NCBI GenBank assembly: GCA_040376695.1
Contig: JBEIQD010000001.1
Coordinates: 145,437 to 209,436 of the forward strand
Source: Candidatus Nomurabacteria bacterium
Lineage (GTDB): Bacteria; Patescibacteriota; Minisyncoccia; Phycocordibacterales; UBA5272
DNA length: 64,000 bases
Reading direction: 5' to 3'
Shown here: positions 1 to 51,106 of the stretch, piece by piece
Numbering within the stretch: the stretch's first letter is position 1
Layout of the letters: each line of letters begins with the position of its first letter
Position numbers and translations under genes: made by a program
Notes under the pieces: generated by a model
Told to the model about the DNA's origin: nothing
The model's database searches: none
Seen by the model: only the letters and a program-made list of their open reading frames with translations

Positions 1-250
1 AAAAGGTAAGTAATGCACTTGATCTCACAAAAGTCATGACAGCAAAGAAAAGGAGTGGTAATGCTACAACATACACCGATTTCTGTACTCTCTTTCCAAA
101 TGTCTTAGATAGCCCCCACCCTAGAATCAAAATGAGCGCAGCGAACAAGAAGAAATTGATCCCGAGATTCTGCTCGTAAAACAGTACGTTATGAATGATT
201 CCAAGAACGGCAGCACCTCCCACTAAAAGAAATAAGTCGTTTGTTTTCAT
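1..250 (-). CDS. Hypothetical multi-TM membrane protein, N-terminal part (gene runs off window start)
   Basis: Manual translation of minus strand from ATG at 248-250: MKTNDLFLLVGGAAVLGIIHNVLFYEQNLGINFFLFAALILILGWGL... hydrophobic helices. Start 6 nt after stop of preceding 63-aa ORF (translational coupling). Open to the window edge. Confidence 0.4.
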   Translation of the reverse strand, partial: MKTNDLFLLVGGAAVLGIIHNVLFYEQNLGINFFLFAALILILGWGLSKTFGKRVQKSVYVVALPLLFFAVMTFVRSSALLTF

Positions 251-256
251 AGATAT

Positions 257-448
257 TTAAGCGGAGGGCTTTTCCATTAATTTATCCTCAATCTTTCTCA
301 AAGATACTTCTATATTTTCCAGTGCGTCCACCACTCGATTCATTTTCCAATACCAAGTAAACAATTCTCGAATAATAAAGAAAAGTAAGGTGCCTCCAAA
401 AAACAATACGAAATCAGATTCTTGTGCAAGTTTGTCAATTATTTCCAT
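257..448 (-). CDS. Small hypothetical protein with one predicted TM helix
   Basis: 63-aa ORF (FVLFFGGTLLFFIIRELFTWYW hydrophobic stretch). Tightly coupled to the downstream membrane-protein ORF. Confidence 0.4.
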   Translation of the reverse strand: MEIIDKLAQESDFVLFFGGTLLFFIIRELFTWYWKMNRVVDALENIEVSLRKIEDKLMEKPSA

Positions 449-566
449 ATTGATAATTATAGCTTATCTTGGGTGTGAGCTCCATAATTTCTTGAACTGC
501 ATACAGTTCGTTGAAATTAGCAGTACTTTTAGGTGACGAAGTTAGAACCAATTTATTTTTAACTAG

Positions 567-3500
567 TTACTCTTCCTCAAAGGGATAAACAAAGTTTTGT
601 TTATAAACATTTTGGTTTTTCTTTAATATATCAGCGTGGTCTGGCCGATGAATATCATCAAGATTCTCTGGCCAGTATCTCCGTTCTCCCCAACTCACCA
701 AAACAAAAGTCTTTCCTGTTTTTTTCTGAATCTTTTCTAAAAGATCTTTTCGTAGGTAGAGTAGATTTTCATGAGTGCCGTACTGATCACCGCTGTTTAT
801 AGGAATTGCCATAATCTCTCCTTCTTCATTAGATAAATTAAAAGATGATGTCTTAAAATGTAGCTTATAGCTTTTACCTATTTTTTTACTCGGGATATAC
901 ATGCCGACCGAGTCATCATCTTTTCCAAGATAGAAATAATCTTTTGTTGCAAACCATCTAGCAATGCGCTGTATACGCACCTTCTCATAAATAGGCTCTG
1001 TTTTAAAAAGTGGAGGTTCTTCAACTTCTTTCACAATATGATTCTCTTTCTCGGGAAGAAAAGCATACACTAAACGAACACCGTACCAGCTCTTTTCTTC
1101 TTTTGTAAGCTTTCTTTGTTTTTCTCCTCTCTTAATCTTTATCTCTAATACTGGATCTGGAGTACTTTTCTCTCTCCAAAAAACTTCCCCTGCAAAGAGA
1201 CTTCTTATTTCTGATAAAGATGGAAGACTGTTATTACCAGGATAATCCTTAGTTGAAAAAAACTCATCTACTTTCTTAATATCATTTGGTTCCACCAAAA
1301 CCCCATGTAACCAAGTCATGATTTTTCGACTATTCGTAGTATCTTTTTCTCCTATTGTTCCTTCTACTAAAACCCAAGGTCCTTTAACATCATTAATTGT
1401 TTCCACTTTAAGATAATGGCTTATATTTGGCGGTTCATTTTGGATCATCCATTTCTTAATTTCTTTTGGTCCCGTAGTGAGTATTTTTGAGTGTAGATTC
1501 TTGGATATAGAAGATTGTGGAAAACTAACATCCAAGTCTATTGATTCTTCTCTACCATCTTCATTTACCCACCACTTCTCAAGCTGCCCTTTATCAAGCC
1601 TTATACCCATGATTTCTCGATACGCAATAAGGGAATATTTTTCACCGTACCGTTCTATTTTTCCAACGTAACTGTGGTGTCGATCATACCTACTATCTCT
1701 CTCTATATATTTATCAATATCTCCAAATTTCTTTAAAGAGTAACCCAATTCATAGAGTCGCCACATTATATTTTCTTTAAGCTTAATATAGTTTTTGTCT
1801 CTATCATCATAAGCGCGACTACCCACTAAGTGTCTTAATGTATCTTTTTCAAATTCCCACCCCAGCGGGGCGTTCCCCTCGCGATATAGACCTTCATCTT
1901 TATCTTGACTTCGCCCCCAGCGACGAATACCACCATCCAAGTAAGGTGGTCTGATTCTTTTTATTTCTGAATCTGAAAATAAACTTTTATTATTATATAA
2001 ACCTACTTCAATAACGCCTCGAGCGTAGTCTCTAATAAAAACATTAGAGGAGCTTAGTTTTGCATGTTTTTTAAAAAAAAGAGCGTAGATATTTTTAGTG
2101 TGAGGATACAATGCTTTTGATATTAACTTTTTATCTAGATCGTTTAACGCCATTGCTATCCCGTAATCAACAGCCAATAATCTTTCCTGAATATAAGGAT
2201 CATTAACTTCAATAGCGTTCTCTAGAAACTCTATAAACTTTTCTGGATTAACTTTCCCGACGATATAAAGGCACCTCGTGGCTCTATTTCGTAGTAACTT
2301 GACGTTACTACTCAACACCCATTTCAAAACCTGCATTACACAAACTGCTTGCTCATCGCCCATTTGCGGAAGTTTTTGATTTTCAATCCAGGAAATTAGT
2401 TTATAAATACTGCCTGAACCATACTGCTTTCTAAGATACTCTGACCACAGCAAGTCTCTGCTTGTTAATGTGAGTCCATTTAAATACTTATTAAGTCGTT
2501 CTGCATTTAAAGGATGGAAAGGTTTAGTTGCCGTCGAGACAAAAAGATCAAGCAATTCTCTGTAAGAATTATCATACTTAAAAAGTGTTTTATTTATATA
2601 ATTAAGAATAGAACTTTTTATTTCCCTTTTATCATTTAAGAAATTCTCTGGTTTTCTCCAATATAAACTTTGAATAAAAGCAGATCTTATTTGTGGGTGG
2701 TATTTAAGCTCTTTAGGTAAGTAGTTAATCAAATCTTTTTCATGTAGAGACCTATTATTTTTTACGCTTTCAGGAAACTCAACCATCAAAGCTTCGACTA
2801 AATCTATATTTATTAAAATAGTACGCTCATCTTTAAATAAATCCCCCAAAGGAGTAGAGGCTTTTAGGCTCGATTTTACCTTTTTACTGTTAAAAAAATT
2901 TTTATCATAAAGTAAATTTCTTGCGATTATATGATCACTAAACTTGTGGAAAGAAAATTTTAAAACATCATAATACTTCTTTGCTTTATCATCCCAAGCA
3001 GCATCTCTAATTAGCACCCCTTCCTCTATTAGTATTTTCAATACTTTCAAACATGTTGTTAGGGTATATTTTCCTTCAGAAAGATCTCTAATGACTCCTA
3101 GGACTTCACTCTCTATAAGAAACCTCCTACCATTGCTTGCCATAAGTTTAGCTATCATTTTTACCAAACAATCATTTCCAGACTTATTCCAAATCCAAGA
3201 ATGTTTTATTAAAGCCTTGTACTTTGAAGAGTGTTTTTTAATTATCCATTCTTCTTTTGTAATATAAAAATCTTCTAGAATTTTTGTCATTCCAACTTGC
3301 CCTAAGGCAAGATCTCTAATACCTTTTGTAACTTTTGCTTTACCTCCTTTTATATCCTTTGCAGTTCTACAAAAGCAACTTAAAAATAAAGGGCTACTAA
3401 ATTCTGATATTAACAATGGAACCTGAGGAAGAGTGAGTCCATAGAAATTAAAAAAGGCGGTCATTGCTTCAAGTTCGTTATCTTGGAATCCTTGGTGATA

Positions 3501-4499
3501 TTCTGTTGTTATTTTTAATCTTTTAGGTAGATAGAGAAATTGAAAGGGAACTCTGCATGTCATAACTATGCCAACCCAGGGATATTTCTTGGCTTCTCTA
3601 ATTAAATATCGAACCCCCGCTTTCCAGCCTTTCCTGTCAGCTTCATTTATAGCATCAATAATTATCAAAGATCTTCTGTTTGCTTTTTGCCCTAGATCAT
3701 TTAACTCTTGTAAAATTCCATTTTTTGTTCCTTTTATAGAGGTAGCTTTAAAGACCGCTTCGATGGAATCGTTAATTTCTAACAACTTCTCTCCTAAAAC
3801 AATAATAGTTGGTGGAAGATTCTCATCTAAACGCTGCTTTGATATATCACAAACTAAATGAGTTTTGCCCATTCCTGCTTGACCTAATATAAGTAAAAAA
3901 GGATCATTCATAAGTTGAGCCTTATGACTTTTTGCAAAATAATCCAACTTGCGTATAGAGCTTTCAAATTCCCTTAAAGTACTTTCCAGGCTTTTCAGTT
4001 CTCGTAACTCTTCTGAAGAACTGTGCCCAAAATATTCTCTTCCTTCGACTTTTGCTTTTTCTCTTTGTGCATCATTTTCCTTACTTTCAAAATCCCACAC
4101 ATAGTGCTGAATTGGAGAAAAATATTTATATAATTTTTCTGAAGCTTGTATAACAGATTTTAAATTGAGTTCCTCAGCCTGATCTTGAGCAAATTTTTCC
4201 GCTATTTCTAGATAACTTTCTCCTAATTTTTGGATCTTTCTTAAATTCTTCCTTACTGTTGTATCTTTATACTTTAACGGATTTAAATATCCTAATCTTT
4301 TATGAGATTCTCGTAGGCTTTTCCTATAACCCTCGATCTCTTTGAAGACCTTTTCTGTTCTTCCTATACCGTCAAAAACATCTTTTATTGGCAGTTCAAC
4401 GTTAATATCGCTAGTGTACCTAGGTCCAGCTGCATCCTTGGCTTCTCTCCAGATTCTTTTTTGGTCTATTTGGATTTTGGGAGTTTTTTTTACGCTCAT
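567..4499 (-). CDS. Large STAND/NACHT-like P-loop NTPase (1310 aa), multidomain; candidate defence/signalling ATPase
   Basis: Walker A LILGQAGMGKTHLV (~aa 205). Walker B-like LIIIDAINEAD. Downstream GIVMTCR resembles the hhhTSR sensor-1 motif of NACHT/STAND ATPases. ~200-aa charged helical N-terminal region and ~900-aa C-terminal region without recognisable repeats. Markedly AT-rich codon usage relative to neighbouring core genes. Confidence 0.75.
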   Translation of the reverse strand: MSVKKTPKIQIDQKRIWREAKDAAGPRYTSDINVELPIKDVFDGIGRTEKVFKEIEGYRKSLRESHKRLGYLNPLKYKDTTVRKNLRKIQKLGESYLEIAEKFAQDQAEELNLKSVIQASEKLYKYFSPIQHYVWDFESKENDAQREKAKVEGREYFGHSSSEELRELKSLESTLREFESSIRKLDYFAKSHKAQLMNDPFLLILGQAGMGKTHLVCDISKQRLDENLPPTIIVLGEKLLEINDSIEAVFKATSIKGTKNGILQELNDLGQKANRRSLIIIDAINEADRKGWKAGVRYLIREAKKYPWVGIVMTCRVPFQFLYLPKRLKITTEYHQGFQDNELEAMTAFFNFYGLTLPQVPLLISEFSSPLFLSCFCRTAKDIKGGKAKVTKGIRDLALGQVGMTKILEDFYITKEEWIIKKHSSKYKALIKHSWIWNKSGNDCLVKMIAKLMASNGRRFLIESEVLGVIRDLSEGKYTLTTCLKVLKILIEEGVLIRDAAWDDKAKKYYDVLKFSFHKFSDHIIARNLLYDKNFFNSKKVKSSLKASTPLGDLFKDERTILINIDLVEALMVEFPESVKNNRSLHEKDLINYLPKELKYHPQIRSAFIQSLYWRKPENFLNDKREIKSSILNYINKTLFKYDNSYRELLDLFVSTATKPFHPLNAERLNKYLNGLTLTSRDLLWSEYLRKQYGSGSIYKLISWIENQKLPQMGDEQAVCVMQVLKWVLSSNVKLLRNRATRCLYIVGKVNPEKFIEFLENAIEVNDPYIQERLLAVDYGIAMALNDLDKKLISKALYPHTKNIYALFFKKHAKLSSSNVFIRDYARGVIEVGLYNNKSLFSDSEIKRIRPPYLDGGIRRWGRSQDKDEGLYREGNAPLGWEFEKDTLRHLVGSRAYDDRDKNYIKLKENIMWRLYELGYSLKKFGDIDKYIERDSRYDRHHSYVGKIERYGEKYSLIAYREIMGIRLDKGQLEKWWVNEDGREESIDLDVSFPQSSISKNLHSKILTTGPKEIKKWMIQNEPPNISHYLKVETINDVKGPWVLVEGTIGEKDTTNSRKIMTWLHGVLVEPNDIKKVDEFFSTKDYPGNNSLPSLSEIRSLFAGEVFWREKSTPDPVLEIKIKRGEKQRKLTKEEKSWYGVRLVYAFLPEKENHIVKEVEEPPLFKTEPIYEKVRIQRIARWFATKDYFYLGKDDDSVGMYIPSKKIGKSYKLHFKTSSFNLSNEEGEIMAIPINSGDQYGTHENLLYLRKDLLEKIQKKTGKTFVLVSWGERRYWPENLDDIHRPDHADILKKNQNVYKQNFVYPFEEE

Positions 4500-4641
4500 T
4501 AGTCAACAGTATACTCTTTTTGTCTACCTAACAAGATTATAAATCAAGAATCATATCCAGCGTTTCTGAGTTTTGTGAGTATAAGCATTTTTAACTCTAA
4601 CAAGTCATATTTCAGTGCCAGCAAGAACACCATTAACAAAC

Positions 4642-5049
4642 TCATTTCTTTCTATGCGGAAATTTTACTGTTGCAGCCAAATACAAAAGCATTGACGATA
4701 GTAGAATTACTGGCAACATCATGATTCCCCAAAAACCTACCGTTAAACCCATACGAAACAAACCAGCAACATTTACCGGGTTAAATGCCAAAATAAGGAT
4801 TACGGGGATAAACATTAAAATATTTACCCCGATAATTCCGTTTAGAACTTTTTCCATTCTCTCAGAAAAAGCAGGATCAACATATTCTATGTACAGGTAG
4901 CTGGCAATTAAAACAGTGATAGTGAGGCCCCACTTTAAAATAATATTATTAGCTCCACTTGTTTCCTTATCAAAAACAGCTTGCATGATTATAGGAAAGA
5001 ACAGTGAAAGACCTATAAGAAACTGCAGCCTACTTTCTAGTTTTTTCAT
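4642..5049 (-). CDS. Hypothetical 4-TM integral membrane protein (135 aa)
   Basis: Four hydrophobic segments (LIGLSLFFPIIMQAV, LTITVLIASYLYI, ILMFIPVILILAF, FWGIMMLPVILLSSMLLYLAA). Start codon 3 nt from the 3' end of tRNA-Gln. Directly upstream of the STAND NTPase on the same strand. Confidence 0.6.
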   Translation of the reverse strand: MKKLESRLQFLIGLSLFFPIIMQAVFDKETSGANNIILKWGLTITVLIASYLYIEYVDPAFSERMEKVLNGIIGVNILMFIPVILILAFNPVNVAGLFRMGLTVGFWGIMMLPVILLSSMLLYLAATVKFPHRKK

Positions 5050-5051
5050 TG

Positions 5052-5122
5052 CTGGGGAACAGGGACTCGAACCCCAATACCATCCTCCAGAGGGATGTGT
5101 CCTACCATTAGACGATTCCCCA
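5052..5122 (-). tRNA. tRNA-Gln (anticodon CTG)
   Basis: Hand-folded cloverleaf from minus strand TGGGGAATCGTCTAATGGTAGGACACATCCCTCTGGAGGATGGTATTGGGGTTCGAGTCCCTGTTCCCCAG. 7-bp acceptor TGGGGAA/TTCCCCA, anticodon stem CATCC/GGATG, loop CTCTGGA, TTCGAGT T-loop. CCA not encoded. Confidence 0.75.
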
Positions 5123-5208: not shown

Positions 5209-6864
5209 TCAAAGAGTGGCACGGACCAAACGTATTTGGTGAAAGGTATATTTTCCACCGAGCTCGTCAAAGACTGGAGTGAGTTTTGTGGTCTCCAAAG
5301 TCTTGAAAGCTTTCTTGATAGCGGTCACGTCTTTTTTCGGAGGTAACACCTTATCTAACACCACTTCTTCTTTCATTTCTACTAACTTCTCAATGTGTCC
5401 GATAATGGTGTCTACGGAGAGATTTCTTTGCTCGGCGATTTCAGCAAGTGTGAGTCCGATCTTTAACATCTCTTGCGTCACTGTATGTGTGAGCGTCTTT
5501 TCTTGAATCTCATCTGCTTCAGCATCACTTAATTCTACAAGTGTTCCCCCTTTCTCGGTGAGGAACTTTTCATGCAGCACTTTCAAATCATTTTCATTGT
5601 ATTTATCAAGCGCATATTCTGCCTGTTCACTCTTGTTACGGAACGTATAATCCGCTTCTCGAACCTCTTCTGAAATCTGAAGAGCTTGTGGATTGAACCC
5701 GACCAAGTGGAGCCCTTCCATGCTCTTTAATCGAGAAAGAGCAACATATCCCTGTCCTGAAGCAAACGCACGACTGAGGTCAATTTGAGCCCTATCAAGG
5801 GTCATTCCTTGGCTCTTGTGGACGGTGATAGCCCAGGCTAATTTAATAGGTAATTGGGATATCTCGGCTTTTACTTTTCCGTCTTCTTCCACGCGCCAGG
5901 TATCAGCTTTCATAACCACTCGTTTCCCTGTTTGAAGTGCGATCACAGGACTATTATCTTTCTCAAAATCAACCACAATTCCCATAGAACCATTCACATA
6001 CTTTCGCTCAGCATCGTTTTTGATACAAATTACTTTCGCTCCAATTTTAAGTTCCAATATTTCATCCGCCAAACAGTTGTTCTTAAGCGATGCAAGTACG
6101 GGACCTTTTCCTTTTGTTACCATGTCGAATCTCTTTACTTCCCCCTCAAGTGCGTCAAAGGCTTTCTTGTTAATCAAATCTACATTCTCATTGTGCGTGT
6201 AGAGTTTTATATGATCATCTGTATGCGGCGTGTTACTTGATTCTTTAAGGGTGAGATAGTGATCCTCTTCCACTTCACCAGAACGAATTGCATTTAAAAT
6301 ATTGGTGAGCGTATCATCTTCTTGTCGGAACTGTTCAGTTAAATAGCACACAACAGGCTTGGCTTCTTTCCACGCTTTTGACATGAATGCGAACACGTCT
6401 GTACTTTCGTATTCATTTCCATTTCGTACCACTGGTGGAAGCTGAAAGAAGTCTCCAGTGAACACAACTTGTAATCCACCGAACGGTTTATCGCTTCGAC
6501 GTAGATGTTTCCCTGCTTTGTCCAACATATCTACAAGCGAAGCGTGAAGCATAGAAATTTCATCAATGATAAGCACTTGAGTATCATTCCACCTCTTGTA
6601 TACATTTGCTTTCTCTTCTAATTCATCAAGATCATACGCTGTGAGCTTTTGTTTAATACCAAGACCACTCCACGCATGAATGGTTGTTCCACCGATATGG
6701 GTAGAGGCAATACCGGTTGAAGCGGTAACTGCGAATTTAATACCATGCTTACGCAGGTAGGTAATGTATTCACGGAGAGCGTAACTTTTACCAGCTCCCG
6801 CCGCACCAGTGAGAAATACCGTGTGTCCTAGTTTAAGAATATCGAGAGCGGTCTTCTGCGTCAT
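5209..6864 (-). CDS. Pif1/RecD-family ATP-dependent DNA helicase with C-terminal HTH
   Basis: Walker A FLTGAAGAGKSYAL. Motifs LIIDEISM and TGDFFQLPPV typical of the Pif1 (AAA_30) family. C-terminal helix-turn-helix-like tail. Confidence 0.85.
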   Translation of the reverse strand: MTQKTALDILKLGHTVFLTGAAGAGKSYALREYITYLRKHGIKFAVTASTGIASTHIGGTTIHAWSGLGIKQKLTAYDLDELEEKANVYKRWNDTQVLIIDEISMLHASLVDMLDKAGKHLRRSDKPFGGLQVVFTGDFFQLPPVVRNGNEYESTDVFAFMSKAWKEAKPVVCYLTEQFRQEDDTLTNILNAIRSGEVEEDHYLTLKESSNTPHTDDHIKLYTHNENVDLINKKAFDALEGEVKRFDMVTKGKGPVLASLKNNCLADEILELKIGAKVICIKNDAERKYVNGSMGIVVDFEKDNSPVIALQTGKRVVMKADTWRVEEDGKVKAEISQLPIKLAWAITVHKSQGMTLDRAQIDLSRAFASGQGYVALSRLKSMEGLHLVGFNPQALQISEEVREADYTFRNKSEQAEYALDKYNENDLKVLHEKFLTEKGGTLVELSDAEADEIQEKTLTHTVTQEMLKIGLTLAEIAEQRNLSVDTIIGHIEKLVEMKEEVVLDKVLPPKKDVTAIKKAFKTLETTKLTPVFDELGGKYTFHQIRLVRATL

Positions 6865-11808: not shown

Positions 11809-12126
11809 TTAGATATTCTTCAAATCATTCATTACCGCGTCCACGTCTGAGGTGTCATACCGCGGAACGTGTCCGTCAGCACGCCCTTCAGGTTCATTTA
11901 TCTTCAAGTTTACTCGAGCGTTATTCTTCATACCAACAACACGAAGCAGTGTTCGCAGTGCTTTTGCTGTAGCTCCGTCACGTCCGATAATTTTTCCCAT
12001 ATCTTCCGCTGCCACATCAAGTGTAATTAACACACCCATCTCATCCACTCTTCGTTCTACTTTTACCTCGTCTTGATTCTCTACAAGTGCCTTTACAACA
12101 TATTCAACAAATTCTTGGTCTTTCAT
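11809..12126 (-). CDS. KH-domain RNA-binding protein (KhpA/YlqC-like)
   Basis: GKIIGRDGATAKALRTLL GxxG KH motif. Located between rpsP and trmD as in many bacteria. Confidence 0.8.
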   Translation of the reverse strand: MKDQEFVEYVVKALVENQDEVKVERRVDEMGVLITLDVAAEDMGKIIGRDGATAKALRTLLRVVGMKNNARVNLKINEPEGRADGHVPRYDTSDVDAVMNDLKNI

Positions 12127-12214
12127 ATCGTGTTTGTATTTATCAATTCAGTGTACTCTTCTCCTTCTTTTTTATAGATAAGTTATGCACAGCATGCATA
12201 CCTAGTATTTTTAT

Positions 12215-12250
12215 AATAAAAAACTTGAGATTGAATCTCAAGTTTTTTAT
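12215..12250 (-). terminator. Rho-independent terminator after rpsP (AAAAAACTTGAGATTGAATCTCAAGTTTTTT)
   Basis: Seen directly. 12-bp stem plus T-tract. Confidence 0.6.
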
Positions 12251-12252
12251 TA

Positions 12253-12552
12253 TTATGCAGCCTTTGCTACTTTAACAACTGGCTTCTTCTTTGGAAGAAC
12301 GTTGATTTTCTTTCCTTCGATAACTCCCTTTGAAACGAGGAGATTGTGAACCGTTGGAGTAACCTGTGCACCAACTGACATCCAGTGCTTTACGCGGTCT
12401 CCTTTAGCTTCAAAGATACCAGCTTTAACATTATAAGTTCCAACAATCTCAGTAAATTGAGATGTTTTTGCCTTAAGGGTACTTTCTGTAACAATAAGAC
12501 GGAAATGAGGGTCGTTCTTGCGTCCTGTACGCTGTAGTCTGATTTTTAACAT
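12253..12552 (-). CDS. rpsP: 30S ribosomal protein S16
   Basis: Canonical N-terminus MLKIRLQRTGRKNDPHFRLIV. Start moved to the internal Met of the tracked ORF. Confidence 0.9.
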   Translation of the reverse strand: MLKIRLQRTGRKNDPHFRLIVTESTLKAKTSQFTEIVGTYNVKAGIFEAKGDRVKHWMSVGAQVTPTVHNLLVSKGVIEGKKINVLPKKKPVVKVAKAA

Positions 12553-12630
12553 GTTCCATATTCTACCATAAACCCCAATAAAAAACAAGAAAAGCCCTAG
12601 CGATTCCCATAAAATGGGATAGCTAGGACT

Positions 12631-12894
12631 TTACGAGAATGTGCCGTTTTTAAAAAGCGTCTTTCGAACAATGCAGGGCTGGAATTTTTGGCACGCAAAA
12701 CCCTTAAAGCCCAGAGCGAGAGTTGCGGGACAGTCACAAATGACCGACATAACAACAATCGATGGACATTTTGGGCTATCTTTAGGCCCTTTCCCTTCAG
12801 CAAAAGCTTCTGCCTCTTCCCGAAACAAGGCAATCAGGGACTCTTGTGACGGTTCTTCACCTTCAGGTACTTTAGGAATAATTACGGTGTTCAT
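12631..12894 (-). CDS. Small Cys-containing hypothetical protein (87 aa)
   Basis: Strong SD AAAGGAGG 7 nt upstream of ATG (MNTVIIPKVPEGEEP...). Five Cys in C-terminal half (CPSIVVMSVICDCP...FACQKFQPC). The opposite-strand ORF looks non-protein-like. Confidence 0.4.
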   Translation of the reverse strand: MNTVIIPKVPEGEEPSQESLIALFREEAEAFAEGKGPKDSPKCPSIVVMSVICDCPATLALGFKGFACQKFQPCIVRKTLFKNGTFS

Positions 12895-12939
12895 AATGAA
12901 CCCCTCCTTTCTAAGAACCCATTCTACCACGGAATAGAA

Positions 12940-14874
12940 CTATCGTACTAGCTCGTAATCAATCACCCGTAAATCAAGATTTGCGTTCTTTACACGCATT
13001 CGTACTGGTGTTCCAATCTTCCATTCCATTCCTGTTCGCTCTCCAAACACTCGTCCACCTTTTTGGTCAAAGTTGTAGAAATCGTCCCCCAGGTCACGCA
13101 AACGAATCATACCTTCACACTTACTTTTCTTCTCTTCTACATAAATCCCCCACTCAGACACGCCAGACACCATACCGTCGAATTCTTGCCCAATGCGGTA
13201 CGACATATACTCCACCTGCTTATACTTAATACTTCCACGTTCAGCGTCTGACGCTTCTTTTTCTCGGCGGCTAGCTTTTGCACAGAGTGAATCAAATAAT
13301 CCACGCTCTTCTTCTTTAGGATAGTCTCCTTCTAGCACTCGCATTAAGAGACGATGTGTCAGCACATCAGGATACCGACGAATTGGAGACGTAAAGTGAG
13401 AATAATAATCAAACGCTAGTCCATAGTGACCAACATTTTTTGTACTATATACCGCTTTTGCCATAGAACGAGTAATGTGAACTTGGAGCAATTGCTTCTC
13501 AGGCCTATCTGCCATTTTACGAAGAAGATCATTGAGGTCCTGTGAAGGAATGAGTCCGTCTATAAAGCGAACATGGAACCCGAGACCACGAATATACAAA
13601 TCAAGATCGTGCATCTTATCAGGGTCTGGTTTATCGTGAATACGGTACACGCAAATTGATCGGCCGTTTTTCTCCTCTTGTTTTTCGGTAATAAACTTAC
13701 TTACATATTTGTTAGCTAAAAGCATGTACTCCTCAATCAACTTGTGAGTATCTCCACGAGACTTAACATACACATCAATTGGCACACCCTTTTCATCTAA
13801 CTTAAATTTAACCTCTTCAGTTTCAAGAGAAAGCGCCCCACCTTCAAAACGTGCTTTTGTTAAATTCTTTGCAATCTTATTTAAAATAGTAAGCTCTTCG
13901 TAGAAATCTCCTGTTCCTGTGTCGAGGGTAACTTGCGCGTCCTCGTATGAATATCTTCGATGAGAGTTAATGAGAGATCGCCCAAACCATTCTCCATGAA
14001 CTTTTCCTTCATCATCAAGTTCAAGCACCGCAGACATTACAAGGCGGTCTTCACCCTGCACAAGAGAACATAAATCGTTTGAAAGCACCTCTGGAAGCAT
14101 AGGAATCACACGGTCAACGAGGTACACAGATGTCTCGCGAGCTATTCCTTCCTCATCAAGTGCCATTCCTGGGCGGACATAGTACGAAACGTCAGCAATA
14201 TGAATACCAACCTCGTAGTGACCATTATCAAGCTTCTTAAATGAAATAGCGTCGTCAAAGTCTTTAGCGTCGATTGGGTCGATGGTGAACGTTGGTGTCG
14301 TTCTGAAATCTCTTCGATTAGCTTTATCTTCTTCCGTAATTCCTCGCGCTTTTATTTCATTAGCTTCTTTGTTTACTGCATCATTATGTTCAGCACTAAA
14401 ACCACGTTCAAGTGCGTACGCAAGCATTTCCGCATTGTTGTCTCCTGGATATCCAAGTACATTCGTCACACGCCCTACCGGAGACTTCTTTTGATCACTC
14501 CACTCATCAATGGTTGCGATTACTTTCATACCAACCTCAGCACCATTAAGATCATCCTTGTTGATCATGATGTCGGTGTACATTTTCTTGTCCTGGGGAA
14601 CAAGAAAATAATGTCCTGCATCTTCTTCTATGATACCAGCGTACCCTTTACGTCCACGCTCGATAATAGAGAGTACTTTTCCGTATAGTTCTTGTTCGCC
14701 TTTTATGTTCTGCTTTTTACCGAGTAGTTCCACTTGAACAATATCTTGGTGGAGTGCTGTATTAAGATGGCTGTGGTCAACAAAAATCGCACCATCATGC
14801 TCAAGCTCTGTAACCCGTACATATCCATCTTTCTTAGAAGTGAGGCTAACTGCCCCTGTAAACACACGTTCCAT
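12940..14874 (-). CDS. rnr: Ribonuclease R / RNase II family 3'-5' exoribonuclease
   Basis: RNB catalytic domain motifs (IDPIDAKDFDDAISF, HYGLAFDYYSHFTSPIRRYPD) and C-terminal S1 domain. Confidence 0.9.
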   Translation of the reverse strand: MERVFTGAVSLTSKKDGYVRVTELEHDGAIFVDHSHLNTALHQDIVQVELLGKKQNIKGEQELYGKVLSIIERGRKGYAGIIEEDAGHYFLVPQDKKMYTDIMINKDDLNGAEVGMKVIATIDEWSDQKKSPVGRVTNVLGYPGDNNAEMLAYALERGFSAEHNDAVNKEANEIKARGITEEDKANRRDFRTTPTFTIDPIDAKDFDDAISFKKLDNGHYEVGIHIADVSYYVRPGMALDEEGIARETSVYLVDRVIPMLPEVLSNDLCSLVQGEDRLVMSAVLELDDEGKVHGEWFGRSLINSHRRYSYEDAQVTLDTGTGDFYEELTILNKIAKNLTKARFEGGALSLETEEVKFKLDEKGVPIDVYVKSRGDTHKLIEEYMLLANKYVSKFITEKQEEKNGRSICVYRIHDKPDPDKMHDLDLYIRGLGFHVRFIDGLIPSQDLNDLLRKMADRPEKQLLQVHITRSMAKAVYSTKNVGHYGLAFDYYSHFTSPIRRYPDVLTHRLLMRVLEGDYPKEEERGLFDSLCAKASRREKEASDAERGSIKYKQVEYMSYRIGQEFDGMVSGVSEWGIYVEEKKSKCEGMIRLRDLGDDFYNFDQKGGRVFGERTGMEWKIGTPVRMRVKNANLDLRVIDYELVR

Positions 14875-14899: not shown

Positions 14900-17128
14900 T
14901 TACTTACTGTAATTCTCCGCTTCTTTAAAATTAATTGAAAGCAATTTACTTCCTCCGTCTACTCCGATTGTTACGCCGTACAACATGTCGCAGTGATTCA
15001 TGGTTTCTCGATTGTGCGTAATCACGAGCAATTTACTCTTTTCAGCTAATCGTTTGAGCATAACTCCGTATTTGCGAGCGTTTGATTCATCTAGCGGCGC
15101 ATCTGTTTCGTCGAGCACCATAAATGGAGGCGGAGTAATTGAAGACATCGCAAATAAAAGTGCAATTGAAACAAGGGCACGCTCTCCACCCGAGAACATA
15201 GTTATTTCTTTTACCTTTTTGTTTGGGAGCGAGACATCGATATCTATTCCCTGTTCAGTTATCTGATTTCCTTCATCGTCTATTTTTGTGAGTTGTAAAA
15301 GTACAAGCTTTCCTTTTCCTCCCACGAATACCTCTCCAAAAAATTCACTGAATACCTTAGAAACTTCTTCCACCCCTTTTGAAAAACGTTCTTCGAGGGA
15401 CGTTGTGAGTTCATCAATAAGCGTGAGCAGCTTTTCTTCACTGTCTTTAATATCAGTAAGCTCTCGAGCGAGATATTCATCACGTTCACGAGTTGAAGCA
15501 TATTCTGCAATAACTTCTTCACGATTCGGAACACCCGCTTCTTCAATGCGAAGTTTGCAGCGTTCAATAGCACGCAAGATGTCTGGTTTTGGAGTATCAC
15601 GAAACCGTTCGTCAGGAGTATGATTTTTATATTCCAACACAACACGCCCCACAATAAGCACGCCTTCTTCTCGCAGCGCCTCAAAGTGTTGCTTACGAAG
15701 TGAAAACTCTCCTTCTTCTTGTCTTCGTAACGCAATAGTACTTTCAAGTTCACGCAACTTACTCTGTAGTGTCATTACTTTCTTTTCCTCTTCATGACGA
15801 GACTGAAGAGACGTTTGAGCGTGAACATCAATTGCGTCAATTTTCTCTTGAAGAGTCACAACATCTCTAGAGAGAGTCTGTTCTTTCTGTTCATGTTCTG
15901 TAATCGCCTGCGACACTGTTTCAATATCACGCTTCAAGGATTCCTTTTTATTCGTATCTCCTTTGTCTTGCACTCCAAAAAATTCACCCACTTCATGTTT
16001 AAGTCCATGCGCATGCATCGTTGCCTTTTGAATATCAGAAGAATTAAGGGCAGATTCAAGGGAATCAATTTCATGAGAAAAAAGAGTTTGGGCACTAGTC
16101 CATTTTTCGTGACTCAAAGTGACAGCCTTACCTTCTACATCTCTTGAGAATTCTTTTTCTAAATATGCTTTTTCCGCTTCAAGCCTACCGAGCGTTTTTG
16201 TTACTTGATCACGACGCTCTAAGAGTCCGCGCATTTCTGTTTGGAGTGTGTGCTTTTCAGATGTAGAGGTTACCTGCGTTGTAGAAGTGCTATCTTTAAG
16301 TACACGTAACTCTTTTTGAATAGAATCAGTGATGAGAATAAGAGAAGCGGAAGAACCCTCTTCACGTATGCGCTCATCTAACGCTTGTAACTCATTTTCT
16401 TCACGAGTTAAATATGCAATGAGAAGTGTATGCAATTTATTTCGCTCTTCACTTGCTGCTTCAATTTTATCAACCTGTCGCTTCAGGTGATCAAGATGTG
16501 GCTTAATTTCTTTACGTAGCAACTCAACTTCATGTACATGTGTTTTAACACGCTCAAGTTTACGCTTACTTTCGTTTAAGCGCATATGATACATACGCAA
16601 CCCAAGAGCATCTTCTAATGCTTCTTTTCTATCTCGAGGGTTCGCTAATAAAATTCTATCTGCTTCACCTTGATTAATAATCGTATGAGCACTTCCTCCA
16701 ATACCAGCAAACGACAATAGCTCCTGTACATCCTTTAAACGGATTTTTGCATCATTGAGCATATAATCACTCGTACCATCAGCAAAAATAACGCGAGATA
16801 ATGTAAGTTCGTCGTATACCAAATAAGGAGCAAGTGTTTCTGAAGCATGTGCCACATCTCCTTTGTCTTTGTTATCAATCACCATCATCACTGAAGCACG
16901 TGAAAGTGGAGACAAATGTTCTGAACCTTTAAATATAACGTCCGCTCCAATTTTCCCACGCATAGATTTCATCGATTGCTCTCCTAGAACGAAACGAATT
17001 GCTTCTGCGATGTTTGATTTACCAGAACCGTTTGGACCAACAACACCCGTTACCTGATGAGTAACATCAAGTGTTGTTTTTTTAGCGAAGGACTTAAACC
17101 CTTGGATAGTAATGTGCGACAAACGCAT
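14900..17128 (-). CDS. smc: Chromosome segregation SMC-like ATPase (short, ~742 aa)
   Basis: N-terminal Walker A GPNGSGKSNI. C-terminal signature LSGGERALVSIALLFA and Walker B MVLDETDAPLD. Long coiled-coil. Start placed at MRLSHITIQGFKSF. Confidence 0.8.
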   Translation of the reverse strand: MRLSHITIQGFKSFAKKTTLDVTHQVTGVVGPNGSGKSNIAEAIRFVLGEQSMKSMRGKIGADVIFKGSEHLSPLSRASVMMVIDNKDKGDVAHASETLAPYLVYDELTLSRVIFADGTSDYMLNDAKIRLKDVQELLSFAGIGGSAHTIINQGEADRILLANPRDRKEALEDALGLRMYHMRLNESKRKLERVKTHVHEVELLRKEIKPHLDHLKRQVDKIEAASEERNKLHTLLIAYLTREENELQALDERIREEGSSASLILITDSIQKELRVLKDSTSTTQVTSTSEKHTLQTEMRGLLERRDQVTKTLGRLEAEKAYLEKEFSRDVEGKAVTLSHEKWTSAQTLFSHEIDSLESALNSSDIQKATMHAHGLKHEVGEFFGVQDKGDTNKKESLKRDIETVSQAITEHEQKEQTLSRDVVTLQEKIDAIDVHAQTSLQSRHEEEKKVMTLQSKLRELESTIALRRQEEGEFSLRKQHFEALREEGVLIVGRVVLEYKNHTPDERFRDTPKPDILRAIERCKLRIEEAGVPNREEVIAEYASTRERDEYLARELTDIKDSEEKLLTLIDELTTSLEERFSKGVEEVSKVFSEFFGEVFVGGKGKLVLLQLTKIDDEGNQITEQGIDIDVSLPNKKVKEITMFSGGERALVSIALLFAMSSITPPPFMVLDETDAPLDESNARKYGVMLKRLAEKSKLLVITHNRETMNHCDMLYGVTIGVDGGSKLLSINFKEAENYSK

Positions 17129-17150
17129 AGTATAAAAAGTGTAACACAAT

Positions 17151-36684: not shown

Positions 36685-39564
36685 TCAAATTACGATATTT
36701 ATGAGCTTGTTAGGCACAAAAATGATTTTCTTTGGGGTAGCTTCGCCTACATATTTCTGGAAGAAGTCAGTTTTCTTAACCTCGTCTAACACGTGTATCT
36801 CTGTCGTATCATGAGGAACTGTAAGGGTTCCTCGCAACTTACCGCCAATTTGAACCGCGATAGTGGCGCTCGCTTCACGGATGTAATTTTCATCATAGAC
36901 AGTCCAATCAGCTGCGTGGATCGAACCTTCTTCCCCTAGCTGGTTCCATAGCTCTTCTGTAATATGAGGTGCGAATGGAGCTAAAACCTTGAGGAACTCC
37001 GTGTACCAATACTGAGAAATTGAAGCTTCTTCATCGGCTTGATTAAGGCAAATCATCATCGCACTAATGGCGGTATTAAATTTGAAACCTTCAATATCTT
37101 CACCTACTTTTTTAATTGTTTTATGAAGCAATGACTTCATCTTATCTGAGTCAGCAACATCAGCAGATACTTTACCGGAGAGCTTCCATACCCGCTCTAA
37201 AAAGCGCTCAGTGCCTGCAATTCCTTTCGTATCCCAAGCAACTGTTTGCTCAAATGGACCCATAAACATTTCATACATACGAAGTGTGTCTGCTCCGTAT
37301 TGATTAACCACATCGTCTGGGTTAATAACGTTCCCTGCACGTTTACTCATTTTGCGTCCGTCTTCCGCAAGAATGAATCCGAGGAATTCAAGTCGTGAAA
37401 AAGGTTCATCGTTTGACACAACACCAATGTCATATAAAAACTTGTGCCAAAAACGAGCATAGATTAAATGGCGGGTTGCGTGGTCTCCTCCAACATAGAC
37501 ATCCACCGGCTGCCATTTCTTTTCAATCCCCGCATCAGTAAGAGCTTGAGAGTTATGCGGATCAGCGAAACGAAGATAGTACCATGATGAACCGGCCCAC
37601 TGCGGCATAGTGTTTGTTTCGCGAGTAAAGCGCTTTGCTTGTGGATGAGATGATTCGCAACTTACAAACTCCCCTTCTTCATTAAGATATCCCGTAATGT
37701 TCACCCAAGATTCTATAGCCGCAAGGGGGCTTTCTCCTGTTCCTGTCGGTTCATATTTTTCTACCTCAGGCAATCTAACTGGAAGCTCACTGTCAGCAAC
37801 AACATAGGCAACATGATTCTCATCAAATACAATTGGAAAAGGTTCACCCCAATATCTTTGTCGTGCGAACACCCAATCTTTCAAACGATATCGAGAGATA
37901 AGTTTTCCTCCGACAACTTCAGTGATTTTTTTACGTGCTTCTTCAGAAGAAACTCCGACATGACTTCCAGAATTAACGAGCACACCTTCCCCTGTGTACG
38001 CGACATCTTTACCCGCCTTAAGTCGAGCTAACCAAAGTGGAAGCTCTGAGTTCACCATTTTTCCTGGAACAAAATCAGATGCATCTACCCAAACAATCTC
38101 ATTTCCTTCATCTTCTGCGATTCCTACATTTGTTTCATCCTCCAGCTCAAAATAGAGAGCAGAGGCAATCGCTAGTCTATTTTCATCTTTATGCTTCGTA
38201 AAGTAACTTGTCTGCACTGGATTTCCAAGTGTTCGTTTATATACAACATTCACATATCCAGTTTCTTCTCGTAGTTCACGCTTTGCTGCTTCAACAAGAT
38301 CTTCTCCGTCATCAACACCCCCCATAACAACAGTGTCCCAGCCATGAGTTTCATTCCTTAAAATAAGATACTTTTTAGTGGCGGGATTATAGACAATAAC
38401 GTGAACGTTTCTTCGCTTCACTTCTCGCTTCCCTTCCTGGGGTGGATTAACTGTATCGACAATAGACGGACGAACAACTTCTTTAATTGGAAGATTGTAT
38501 GTCTGAGCAAATTCGAAATCACGTTCATCATGTGCTGGAACTGCCATAAGTGCACCTGTTCCAACTCCTCCCATCACATAATTGGCAATCCACACAGGAA
38601 TTTCTTCTTTCGTTGCTGGATTGATTGCATACACACCAGTAAAAATTCCTTTCTTCTCTTTATCAGCTCCATATCCAAGAGACTCTTGCTCATTTTGAAG
38701 CAAAGCAATAAAGCTAATAACTTCTGACGAGGCTTCCCATCCATTCTTAATCCATGTATTTGCAAGTTCAGCTGAAATAGCAACAAAGGTCGCGCCGTAG
38801 AGTGTATCTGGTCGAGTGGTAAACACTTTTTGAGATGGAGGGACACCCTTTCCTGCAGCTAATTCAAAATCAAACTCAGCCCCCTCACTTTTCCCAATCC
38901 AGTTCTTTTGTGCGAGCTTAACCCCTTCCGGCCATTCCAATGTATCCAAATCTGCAATCATGCGGTCTGCGTAATCAGTAATCTTAAGCACCCACTGACG
39001 AAGTGGTTTCTTTTCTACTTTGCTCCCGCAGCGTTCACAAGAGTCTCCTTCTAGATCTTCATTCGCAAGTCCAGTCTTGCATGATGGACACCAATTAATA
39101 GGTTCATTGCTTTCGTACGCGAGATCTTTCTTCCACATTTGTTTAAAAATCCACTGAGTCCATTTATAGAACTCTGGATCGGTTGTATTGATTTCTTTTG
39201 TCCAATCATAATTACATCCAATAATTGAAAGCTGCTCCTTAAAGCGAGCAATATTTTTCTCAACAGCAACTCGTGGATGAACTTTATGTTTAAGAGCAAA
39301 TTCCTCAGCAGGAAGACCAAAAGCATCCCATCCCATTGGGTGGAGTATTTCATAACCTGCCATTGTCTTCATTCGAGAATAAATATCAGTTGCGATATAT
39401 CCTTTAGGATGACCTACGTGAAGCCCTTCACCTGACGGGTATGGAAACATATCCAATACATACATTTTCTTTTTTGTGGTGGAAATATCAGTCTCATAGA
39501 GCTTTGTATCTGCCCACTTCTTCTGCCACTTAGATTCTATGTTTTTAGGATTATATGATTCCAT
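36685..39564 (-). CDS. leuS: Leucyl-tRNA synthetase with inserted NUDIX hydrolase domain
   Basis: HIGH (PYPSGEGLHVGHP), editing-domain TTRPDT, KMSKR. Between AHDERDFEFA and YRLKDW lies an extra ~140-aa segment with a complete Nudix box GGVDDGEDLVEAAKRELREETGY (GX5EX7REUXEEXGU). Confidence 0.9.
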   Translation of the reverse strand: MESYNPKNIESKWQKKWADTKLYETDISTTKKKMYVLDMFPYPSGEGLHVGHPKGYIATDIYSRMKTMAGYEILHPMGWDAFGLPAEEFALKHKVHPRVAVEKNIARFKEQLSIIGCNYDWTKEINTTDPEFYKWTQWIFKQMWKKDLAYESNEPINWCPSCKTGLANEDLEGDSCERCGSKVEKKPLRQWVLKITDYADRMIADLDTLEWPEGVKLAQKNWIGKSEGAEFDFELAAGKGVPPSQKVFTTRPDTLYGATFVAISAELANTWIKNGWEASSEVISFIALLQNEQESLGYGADKEKKGIFTGVYAINPATKEEIPVWIANYVMGGVGTGALMAVPAHDERDFEFAQTYNLPIKEVVRPSIVDTVNPPQEGKREVKRRNVHVIVYNPATKKYLILRNETHGWDTVVMGGVDDGEDLVEAAKRELREETGYVNVVYKRTLGNPVQTSYFTKHKDENRLAIASALYFELEDETNVGIAEDEGNEIVWVDASDFVPGKMVNSELPLWLARLKAGKDVAYTGEGVLVNSGSHVGVSSEEARKKITEVVGGKLISRYRLKDWVFARQRYWGEPFPIVFDENHVAYVVADSELPVRLPEVEKYEPTGTGESPLAAIESWVNITGYLNEEGEFVSCESSHPQAKRFTRETNTMPQWAGSSWYYLRFADPHNSQALTDAGIEKKWQPVDVYVGGDHATRHLIYARFWHKFLYDIGVVSNDEPFSRLEFLGFILAEDGRKMSKRAGNVINPDDVVNQYGADTLRMYEMFMGPFEQTVAWDTKGIAGTERFLERVWKLSGKVSADVADSDKMKSLLHKTIKKVGEDIEGFKFNTAISAMMICLNQADEEASISQYWYTEFLKVLAPFAPHITEELWNQLGEEGSIHAADWTVYDENYIREASATIAVQIGGKLRGTLTVPHDTTEIHVLDEVKKTDFFQKYVGEATPKKIIFVPNKLINIVI

Positions 39565-49894: not shown

Positions 49895-50016
49895 ACGAAT
49901 ACTCTATCACATCAAAAGAAAAAATCAGCTTGTCAAAAACAAGCAGACAAAATAAAAATGCTTCCAGATGTGCAATTGCACACATGGAAGCATTTAGGTT
50001 TCACCAGCACCGGTGT

Positions 50017-50460
50017 TCAGATGAGAACAGCGGCGCCTGGCGGCTCACCGAAGGAGGTTTCAGGCAAATGCGCACGGCCGGTGTAGTTCTGGTCGAAGAT
50101 GCCGGCAATCAGTGGCGGCGCCTTGATCTTGTCCACGGCTGGCCGCCACAACGCCGGGGTAATGCAGCTTGAGCCGCCCTGGCCCTTGCTGTCAGCACAT
50201 CCTGCGCCGATCAGTCGCACAGGCAGCATCTTGGAGATGCCCTGGCCCATGGGAACGAGCGCGAATGCCTTGCCTTCGGTCGCCGCGATGGCGCCAGAAA
50301 CCGGCTGCTGGTTGTTGACTTCTTTCACGCCGGCGATCTGGTCCTTGTTGGAGGCAGCGGCTGCGAGACCTGGCGGAGCCTGGCCCGTAGCAAAAGCACT
50401 CGTGGAAATGCCGACAGACAGCGTCATGCACAGCATGGCCGCAACCAAAGATTTCTTCAT
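50017..50460 (-). CDS. Secreted hypothetical protein (147 aa) encoded by a ~65% GC segment
   Basis: Signal peptide MKKSLVAAMLCMTLSVGISTSAFA. Ala/Gly/Pro-rich mature region. AAGGAG SD 7 nt upstream. Coding region far more GC-rich than flanks. Confidence 0.6.
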   Translation of the reverse strand: MKKSLVAAMLCMTLSVGISTSAFATGQAPPGLAAAASNKDQIAGVKEVNNQQPVSGAIAATEGKAFALVPMGQGISKMLPVRLIGAGCADSKGQGGSSCITPALWRPAVDKIKAPPLIAGIFDQNYTGRAHLPETSFGEPPGAAVLI

Positions 50461-50623
50461 GGCTTTCTCCTTATTCAAAGTTGATGAAATCGGATTTTGT
50501 ACAAAGCAATAAGAGGATCCGACACCCCCCTCATCCACCATAACTCTATCATTCCCCTCTAGAAAATAAAAGTGTTATACACACCTAACGGAGAGAGAAC
50601 TTTTTTGTTACACTACAGCACAC

Positions 50624-51106
50624 ATGAATACTTCTTCTCTCGTGGAATACGCACTCACCTATCCAGCTCTTCCACTCTCTGTCGCTCTTGTCATCCTCCT
50701 CGTGTATGTTATCTATCTTCACTATAAAATATCTGTCTTCACTCGTGGAGAAAATGCAAAGAGCCTTGAGTCTGTTATTCGCACTTACCTTGACCGAGTG
50801 GATGACCTGAAAAAGCATGACGAACTCATTGCTGAACATGCTCTTAAATTAGACAAGCGCCTCTCACAATCTATTAGAAACGTATCAACAATGCGATTCA
50901 AAGCTTTTGATCAAAATGGAAGCAACCAATCATTTGCCGTAGCGCTCGTGAATGAGCTAGGAAATGGACTCATTTTATCTTCACTTCACCATCGAGACCG
51001 CGTATCTGTTTTTGCAAAACCAGTTTCAGGGTATACAAGCACACATGACCTCACCGAAGAAGAGCAAGCAGTACTCGAAGAGTCCAAACAAGCTCATAAG
51101 AACTAA
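50624..51106 (+). CDS. DUF4446-family protein (single N-terminal TM)
   Basis: 160 aa. TM helix then MRFKAFDQNGSNQSFAVALVNE...ILSSLHHR motif typical of DUF4446. Confidence 0.55.
   Translation: MNTSSLVEYALTYPALPLSVALVILLVYVIYLHYKISVFTRGENAKSLESVIRTYLDRVDDLKKHDELIAEHALKLDKRLSQSIRNVSTMRFKAFDQNGSNQSFAVALVNELGNGLILSSLHHRDRVSVFAKPVSGYTSTHDLTEEEQAVLEESKQAHKN

Follow-up and report, generated by a model that had tools for sequence, protein, structure and literature searches.

A window of 64,000 nucleotides (nt) from a Candidatus Nomurabacteria bacterium (contig JBEIQD010000001.1 of assembly GCA_040376695.1, positions 145,437 to 209,436 of the forward strand) was analysed, and all positions below refer to this whole window. 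The open reading frame (ORF) at 567-4499 encodes a protein of 1310 amino acids (aa) which is almost certainly a STAND NTPase of the Avs2 family (AVAST type 2), with the domain architecture described below and with no N-terminal effector domain. By analogy with the characterised members of the family, it would serve in the cytoplasm as a pattern-recognition receptor that detects infection by phages. The effector domain has been required for defence in every Avs studied so far, yet it is missing here. The explanation that we propose as a whole, an effector-less Avs2 protein carried by a single-gene cassette, sensing the phage large terminase and acting by trapping it, has somewhat better than an even chance of being right; its parts differ in strength and are graded where they are discussed.

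Assignment to the Avs2 family

The assignment is carried by profile searches and by comparison with a solved structure. The PADLOC model of Avs2, PDLC02164, matches the protein with E=6.1e-180, residues 15-853 being aligned to positions 178-951 of the 1504 in the profile, and five more PADLOC Avs2 models match at E<=2.6e-59. The NCBIfam model NF041813 (AVAST type 2 anti-phage system protein Avs2) aligns residues 23-853 to its positions 3-777 of 1317 (E=4.2e-171; 571.6 bits, which is below the curated cutoff). EcAvs2, taken from the structure 9o4e_A, aligns over residues 24-855 to its own residues 181-948 (E=3.1e-73). Finally, a profile of the clade of ~1300-aa proteins was compared by hhalign with canonical Avs2, represented by proteins of at least 1480 aa. 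Residues 4-1298 align to positions 187-1528 of 1544 (probability 100%, E=8e-165), and the sole large gap is a deletion of ~110 aa near residue 895, where the canonical proteins have insertions (at query ~895-897).

An earlier description of this locus, made from the letters alone (the sequence-only reading), had likened the protein to antiphage STAND ATPases such as Avs, which is borne out by these matches, but had found no named system to which it belongs, which is not. Pfam gives sub-threshold matches to AAA_16 and NACHT only, and therefore no family was seen by that reading; the absence of a recognisable family is true of Pfam and untrue of the libraries built for defence systems. The search against defence profiles that it had recommended names a known family at once, as PADLOC returns Avs2, and the housekeeping family that it had considered as a counter-possibility is not what the profile searches give. 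The label of a novel module is thus not upheld, since any PADLOC-type scan would name the gene Avs2. A PHROGs search of the protein produced no significant match. The top Foldseek matches of the NTPase module are Avs3, Avs4, NLRP7, NOD2, Apaf-1 and Cdc6/ORC; the PDB library used dates to April 2026, and 9o4e, which was not returned, is probably not in it.

Domain architecture and conserved residues

The gene and the regions of its product are as follows.

567..4499, minus strand: gene of the Avs2-family (AVAST type 2) STAND NTPase, 1310 aa, almost certainly of this family and without an N-terminal effector domain (PADLOC, NCBIfam, PDB and hhalign)
3915..4499, minus strand: helical extension, residues 1-195, which forms the N-terminus of the protein here (residues 24-200 align to EcAvs2 181-355)
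3240..3914, minus strand: STAND NTPase module, residues ~196-420 (Walker A G209-T213, Walker B D282/E286, sensor-1 R316)
1473..3239, minus strand: winged-helix/helical and TPR-like sensor region, residues ~421-1009 (hhalign; all-helical in the AlphaFold2 model)
570..1472, minus strand: beta-strand-rich C-terminal sensor domain, residues 1010-1310

In EcAvs2 an effector is followed by a helical extension, an ATPase, a TPR region and a beta-rich C-terminal sensor, and the helical extension, which sits between effector and ATPase, touches the terminase (PMC13601566). The AlphaFold2 model of residues 111-1310 is confident (predicted local distance difference test score, pLDDT, 85.7; predicted template modelling score, pTM, 0.80) and agrees with this published layout: helices come first, then an alpha/beta NTPase core, a long stretch of helical repeats and, at the C-terminus, a domain rich in beta-strands. 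The ~200 N-terminal and ~900 C-terminal residues, which the sequence-only reading had left as folds of no known kind, correspond by profile and AlphaFold2 checks to the helical extension, the TPR region and the C-terminal sensor of Avs2.

The motifs that had been pointed out previously are present in the 1310-aa product as GQAGMGKTH (residues 206-214), IIIDAINEAD (279-288) and MTCR (313-316). Residues G209, G211, K212, T213, D282, E286 and R316 are invariant in all 29 clade members, and the Walker A, Walker B and sensor-1 residues are also invariant across the aligned canonical Avs2 sequences. An ERYGxKY motif is invariant in the clade alignment. The loop 933-940 in the TPR-like region is the equivalent of the EcAvs2 bridging-ATP loop, and its R940 aligns with the Arg that is conserved there in canonical Avs2.

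Two aspects are highlighted in the comparison with EcAvs2 (9o4e, PMC13601566). First, the 1310-aa protein is like it in the order of helical extension, STAND NTPase, helical TPR region and beta-rich C-terminal sensor, and in keeping the Walker motifs, the ERxGKKY sensor motif and the Arg of the bridging-ATP loop. Second, it differs in having no counterpart of the effector (EcAvs2 residues 1-180), in a helical/TPR region that falls short of the canonical Avs2 one by ~110 aa, in an overall identity of ~25-30%, and in a C-terminal part of 450 aa which has diverged too far for detection with a hidden Markov model (HMM) against the sequence; unlike that of EcAvs2, its ligand is a predicted one. SeAvs3 (8dgc), which also senses terminase, belongs to another Avs family and is 12% identical to the 1310-aa protein, from which it differs by its Cap4 nuclease effector and its much larger sensor (2028 aa). 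A hidden enzymatic effector in the C-terminal part was considered and rejected.

The missing effector and the effector-less relatives

The N-terminus of the protein corresponds to residue ~160-180 of EcAvs2, where the helical extension starts. A longer N-terminus is ruled out because an in-frame TGA lies 6 nt 5' of the ATG. An N-terminal effector is present in all characterised Avs2: an Mrr nuclease in KpAvs2 (PMC11564622), a trypsin in the Vibrio protein (bioRxiv 10.64898/2026.08.25.746987) and an uncharacterised domain in EcAvs2 (PMC13601566). KpAvs2 and the Vibrio Avs2-trypsin-MBL system share the Avs2 core with its TPR region and C-terminal sensor, and they too are single-polypeptide sensors that are found in defence islands. 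In contrast to the 1310-aa protein, KpAvs2 acts through its fused nuclease and the Vibrio system through a fused protease with an MBL partner, defence being lost on mutation of the effector; in the window there is neither an effector nor a nearby partner gene of the Avap1, Avap2 or MBL kind.

The short form is not peculiar to this genome. The start point is shared with all of the ~28 relatives of full length, which are 28-90% identical and come without exception from sources of Patescibacteria type, and more than 50 further homologs of ~1300 aa with an equal start come from Proteobacteria, Actinobacteria, Halobacteria and others. Seven of these homologs were scanned, and each is matched by NF041813 from model position 1-2 with 407-516 bits while its C-terminus remains unmatched. 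The ~1300-aa Avs2-like proteins (e.g. L017, L021, L023, L037, L041, L050 and L078, L numbers denoting the loci of homologs) thus share the architecture with a divergent C-terminal part, and they often stand beside type I restriction-modification (R-M) systems. Unlike the window protein, the forms from Proteobacteria, Actinobacteria and Halobacteria, which are ~27-30% identical to it, lie on a distance tree in lineages separate from the Patescibacteria clade. In this tree, which covers the shared core, proteins without an effector occupy at least three sizeable lineages that are interleaved with effector-bearing ones. Other effector-less loci were checked for a separate effector upstream, and no consistent domain was found there.

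Published descriptions concern the other form. The Avs2 papers PMC13601566, PMC11564622 and PMC13581612 and the bioRxiv preprint on Avs2-trypsin deal with effector-bearing forms only; the 2022 Science catalogue of Avs effector diversity may already list effector-less ones. A literature search for the candidate phyla radiation (CPR) together with AVAST found nothing, and the one relative whose public name was checked is recorded as 'hypothetical protein'. Distant Avs2 homologs are present on 79 plasmids, some of them annotated avs2. Phage records contain no full-length homolog, and two partial matches there cover 14-28% of the protein.

What remains of interest, after the finding of the sequence-only reading has mostly resolved into a known system, is therefore the widespread effector-less state of Avs2, which is under selection, and its presence in Patescibacteria. 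A clade in this phylum, together with a larger group that crosses phyla, keeps the complete sensor and the NTPase of Avs2 without the effector, and strong purifying selection was measured for the window gene (see below). If such proteins do defend, they would act either without killing the cell or through a separate effector, and this bears on how sensing is coupled to output in STAND and NLR proteins.

A single-gene cassette and its mobile context

The following features describe the cassette and the genes next to it.

535..4593, minus strand: single-gene cassette, ~4.06 kb, consisting of the Avs2 gene with flanks of ~94 nt on its 5' side and ~32 nt on its 3' side (blastn and pairwise alignment with L086)
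4500..4593, minus strand: conserved 5' region that moves with the gene, near-identical in L086 over ~80 nt, after which the similarity ends
4642..5049, minus strand: gene of a 135-aa protein with four transmembrane (TM) segments (ORF; four hydrophobic segments)
5051/5052..5122, minus strand: tRNA-Gln(CTG), a host gene (ARAGORN and Rfam)
5209..6864: Pif1 helicase (PF05970, 2e-43)

The closest relative, in L086, encodes a protein that is 90% identical, and its DNA homology to the window (87% identity) is confined to positions 4593-535. By these alignment borders the mobile unit is one gene, and the stretch 4500..4593 probably carries its own promoter or leader. In the window the cassette is inserted in a region of core genes, downstream of tRNA-Gln(CTG) and of the small membrane-protein gene. 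GC content is 0.343 in positions 1-5050 and 0.413 in the remainder of the window, so that the block is AT-rich as had been described; the stretches below 20% GC that were also claimed are not there, the lowest value per 100 bp being 0.20-0.21 near 2550-2900. GC at third codon positions (GC3) is 0.267 in the Avs2 gene, 0.331 in the 135-aa TM gene and 0.341 on average in the host.

The relatives are found next to tRNA-Gln, tRNA-Ser or tRNA-Lys. Since the tRNA-Gln sequences differ between genomes and their stems covary, this tRNA belongs to the host and is likely to be a site that is targeted. In L008 and L010, both from Patescibacteria, tRNA-Gln(CTG) precedes the Avs2 homolog by 86-87 nt, and in L001, L008 and L010 a convergent large serine recombinase follows immediately downstream of the Avs2 gene; Resolvase, Recombinase and Zn-ribbon domains were confirmed in those of L001 and L010. 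In L005 the Avs2 gene is flanked by tyrosine integrases. Type II R-M systems stand beside it in L001, L003 and L087, and in the wider family the type I R-M subunits HsdR, HsdM and HsdS are the sole recurrent neighbours. Because the relatives adjoin tRNA genes, recombinases and R-M systems, a role in defence is supported, and the compositionally deviant, tRNA-proximal mobile context put forward by the sequence-only reading agrees with these neighbours and with the GC values.

That reading had proposed to define the borders of the island together with att repeats. From L086, the ends of the cassette can be placed at 535 and 4593. No att-type repeat of the tRNA 3'-terminal 14-25 nt, at up to three mismatches, was found in 1-5050, and within these positions, which extend 566 nt beyond the gene, there is no recombinase or integrase either. 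A 10-nt AT-rich direct repeat, AGTTAAAAAT, is present at both cassette borders (window 4596-4587 and 564-555); its chance expectation is ~0.25-0.5, and it is compatible with chance and not significant alone. No synteny was detected between the window locus and those of the relatives.

Two further observations concern the loci of relatives. After the tRNA-Gln(CTG) at L008 9916-10000 and L010 9905-9991 come a motif common to both genomes, GGTTTAGTATCGA..GACCTAGG, the Avs2 gene and the convergent large serine recombinase (L010 13924-15258; in L001 the recombinase is at 11906-13225), an arrangement that looks like a small element targeting tRNA-Gln and consisting of Avs2 and recombinase. At L087 577-1088, ARAGORN reports two tRNA-Ala and a feature resembling a permuted tmRNA; they overlie, on the other strand, the start of a gene called as a 559-aa resolvase. 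Either this recombinase has been called with excess length or it directly adjoins a cluster of tRNAs.

Sensing and output

Following EcAvs2 and the Vibrio Avs2-trypsin system, the helical extension, the TPR region and the C-terminal sensor would bind the ATPase domain of the phage large terminase, possibly with a bridging ATP. The ATP-bound NTPase would then oligomerise, presumably into a tetramer like that of EcAvs2. Speculatively, the oligomer may lock the terminase in an inactive complex, so that packaging of the genome would be blocked and the cell would not be killed. The large terminase is probably the ligand, as judged from the characterised relatives; the conserved sensor fold and the one Arg of the bridging-ATP loop lend indirect support to terminase sensing. 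An output by autonomous trapping of the terminase is a more tentative proposal that we rate at somewhat less than an even chance. It is preferred because there is no fused effector and no conserved neighbour and because the gene moves alone between distant hosts. Non-suicidal trapping, if true, might suit episymbionts with tiny genomes.

Several points weigh against this explanation and belong to its assessment. The N-terminal effector of ~160-180 aa, a defining feature of Avs, is missing, and the NF041813 score lies well under the curated equivalog cutoff of 1000 bits. The C-terminal 450 aa escape an HMM-versus-sequence search with 9o4e and are linked to Avs2 via profile-profile and fold comparison only. 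Residues by which EcAvs2 contacts the terminase can be mapped onto the 1310-aa protein for one loop only. Mutation or deletion of the effector abolishes toxicity or defence in characterised Avs (KpAvs2 K71A, PMC11564622; also PMC13581612), and therefore ligand binding alone may not protect. Lastly, the window ends 566 nt beyond the 3' end of the Avs2 gene, at its left edge, and the distal side of the island falls outside it. As the protein falls short of both the NCBIfam cutoff and the effector criterion, it is to be regarded as a variant of Avs2 and not as a novel system.

The same dependence of canonical Avs on the effector, for toxicity as well as for defence, gives weight to another output. 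Here the protein would be a sensor that acts on an unlinked effector or on a conserved factor of the host, in the manner of sensor and helper NLR pairs or of Avs7 with EF-Tu, and oligomerisation would bring the four helical extensions at the N-termini together as a docking surface. Tetramerisation of EcAvs2 does gather the N-termini, the use of host factors is documented for Avs7 and bNACHT25, and proteins without the effector are widespread and maintained by selection. On the other hand, no conserved neighbours other than R-M were found, no further defence gene was detected among ten of the other large ORFs of the window, and the gene passes as a single-gene cassette between distant Patescibacteria and from phylum to phylum, an argument for autonomy. 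This alternative is a serious competitor, although we rate it as less likely than not.

Extending terminase trapping to the whole group would mean that the effector-less Avs2-like proteins, those of this clade and the more than 50 homologs from bacterial and archaeal phyla that score below the Avs2 threshold, are a widespread and overlooked class of autonomous and non-suicidal receptors in which the oligomer itself is the effector and traps the terminase. Such a generalisation is conceivable, but less likely than not.

The 135-aa membrane protein

The small gene between the cassette and the tRNA had been read as a membrane effector paired with the NTPase. As was then described, it is a four-helix membrane ORF (the last of its four hydrophobic segments, residues 94-126, is long) whose ATG at 5049 lies 1-2 nt past the 3' end of tRNA-Gln(CTG), and the Pif1-family helicase is indeed on the other side of the tRNA. 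A word-indexed search had suggested that the protein is an orphan; this was overturned by an exhaustive HMMER search, which finds 79 cluster representatives at E<=1e-3, 16 of them at E<=1e-10. The members are ~130-160 aa long and align from residue 1 with an RLQF..LFFPV..W..Y..P pattern, and for this reason the ORF is a real gene and its start is supported. Searches of Pfam, PADLOC, NCBIfam and PHROG assigned no family. By these alignments, the protein belongs to a separate, undescribed Patescibacteria family of four-TM proteins.

Could this protein be the missing effector? In such a two-gene system the 135-aa protein, for example a membrane-disrupting one, would be activated in trans, giving an Avs with a split TM effector. 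The NTPase has no fused effector, the TM gene is real and conserved, and TM-type effector domains are among the N-terminal domains of Avs type (figure legend in PMC13581612). Moreover, both genes point the same way, and the 142 nt that separate them contain no predicted terminator. Of the previous claim, co-orientation therefore stands, while co-transcription is without support and is not needed, the 94-nt 5' region moving with the NTPase gene; a promoter and terminator scan of the locus gave no signal above chance.

The comparative evidence separates the two genes. DNA homology with L086 ends 49 nt before the stop codon of the TM gene, and the sequence upstream in L086 is unrelated. No TM homolog was found in the other Avs2-clade loci examined, where the upstream neighbours are heterogeneous: tRNAs, an R-M methylase, RibD_C, DUF4153 and a SHOCT protein. 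In L008 and L010 the tRNA-Gln is followed by Avs2 directly. Conversely, none of three TM-family genes in other Patescibacteria (L089, L091, L092) has an Avs2/STAND gene within 6 kb, and a Pif1 helicase is near the TM-family gene in the window and in two of these three genomes. The GC3 of the TM gene fits the host and not the cassette, and no N- or C-terminal signalling motif is common to both proteins. Because of the extent of the homology block, the absence of the gene from the clade, the arrangement in L008 and L010, the Avs2-free TM loci and the GC3, the TM gene is considered unlinked to Avs2 and outside the Avs2 system; in all probability it is resident. The proposed pair of NTPase and TM effector accordingly falls, and a two-gene system is very improbable.

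An amyloid-signalling (BASS-like) motif in the C-terminus of the TM protein and the N-terminus of the NTPase was also considered as a candidate. It was rejected, as residues 4-22 of the NTPase align to the Avs2 core and the two termini are dissimilar.

Selection on the Avs2 gene

In comparison with the 90%-identical relative in L086, the ratio of nonsynonymous to synonymous substitution rates (dN/dS) is 0.09 over the whole gene and stays within 0.05-0.14 in each of its regions, both parts of the sensor included. The 1310-aa Avs2 gene is under strong purifying selection and is not decaying. A decaying Avs2 remnant, or one with a role other than defence such as a housekeeping or regulatory STAND ATPase of the CPR, would account for the missing defining domain, for the score under the curated NCBIfam cutoff and for the 'hypothetical protein' of the public record, but in view of these dN/dS values, the invariant NTPase motifs, a composition that deviates from the host and a patchy distribution in variable contexts (recombinases, tRNAs, R-M), neither syntenic nor universal in related genomes, it is poorly supported and the least probable of the alternatives. 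The sequence-only reading had held that a gene pair which is syntenic and universal, with no deviation in composition, would speak against a defence island; what was found is a patchy distribution and deviating GC and GC3. With the effector-less Avs2 receptor retained as the preferred reading, the locus represents a mobile, single-gene Avs2 cassette in Patescibacteria which is publicly annotated as hypothetical, as far as the one record of a relative that was checked goes.

Other features of the window

On the 3' side of the Avs2 gene, a 63-aa single-TM ORF lies at 257-448 (minus strand) and has a weak match to phrog_28494 (E=0.0035). Past it, at 1-~250 (minus strand), is the gene of a DUF4153 multi-pass membrane protein that continues past the left edge. 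In L006, too, the Avs2 homolog has a DUF4153 gene as its neighbour, there on the upstream side.

The ten other large ORFs that were scanned in the window are housekeeping genes except for two that are unassigned. Among the products of the window, a 749-aa SMC_N/AAA_23 ATPase at 14900-17149 (minus strand) matches the PADLOC models mad3 (2.6e-56) and LmuB (3e-22) and is probably a housekeeping RecN/SMC-like protein. A local GC peak of 0.509, compared with ~0.41, is located at 50001-51000, with no Rfam match at the gathering threshold. The leucyl-tRNA synthetase at 36685-39564 (minus strand) contains a NUDIX domain (PF00293, 8e-15) in residues 383-505, directly after the editing domain, which appears to be an unusual insertion.

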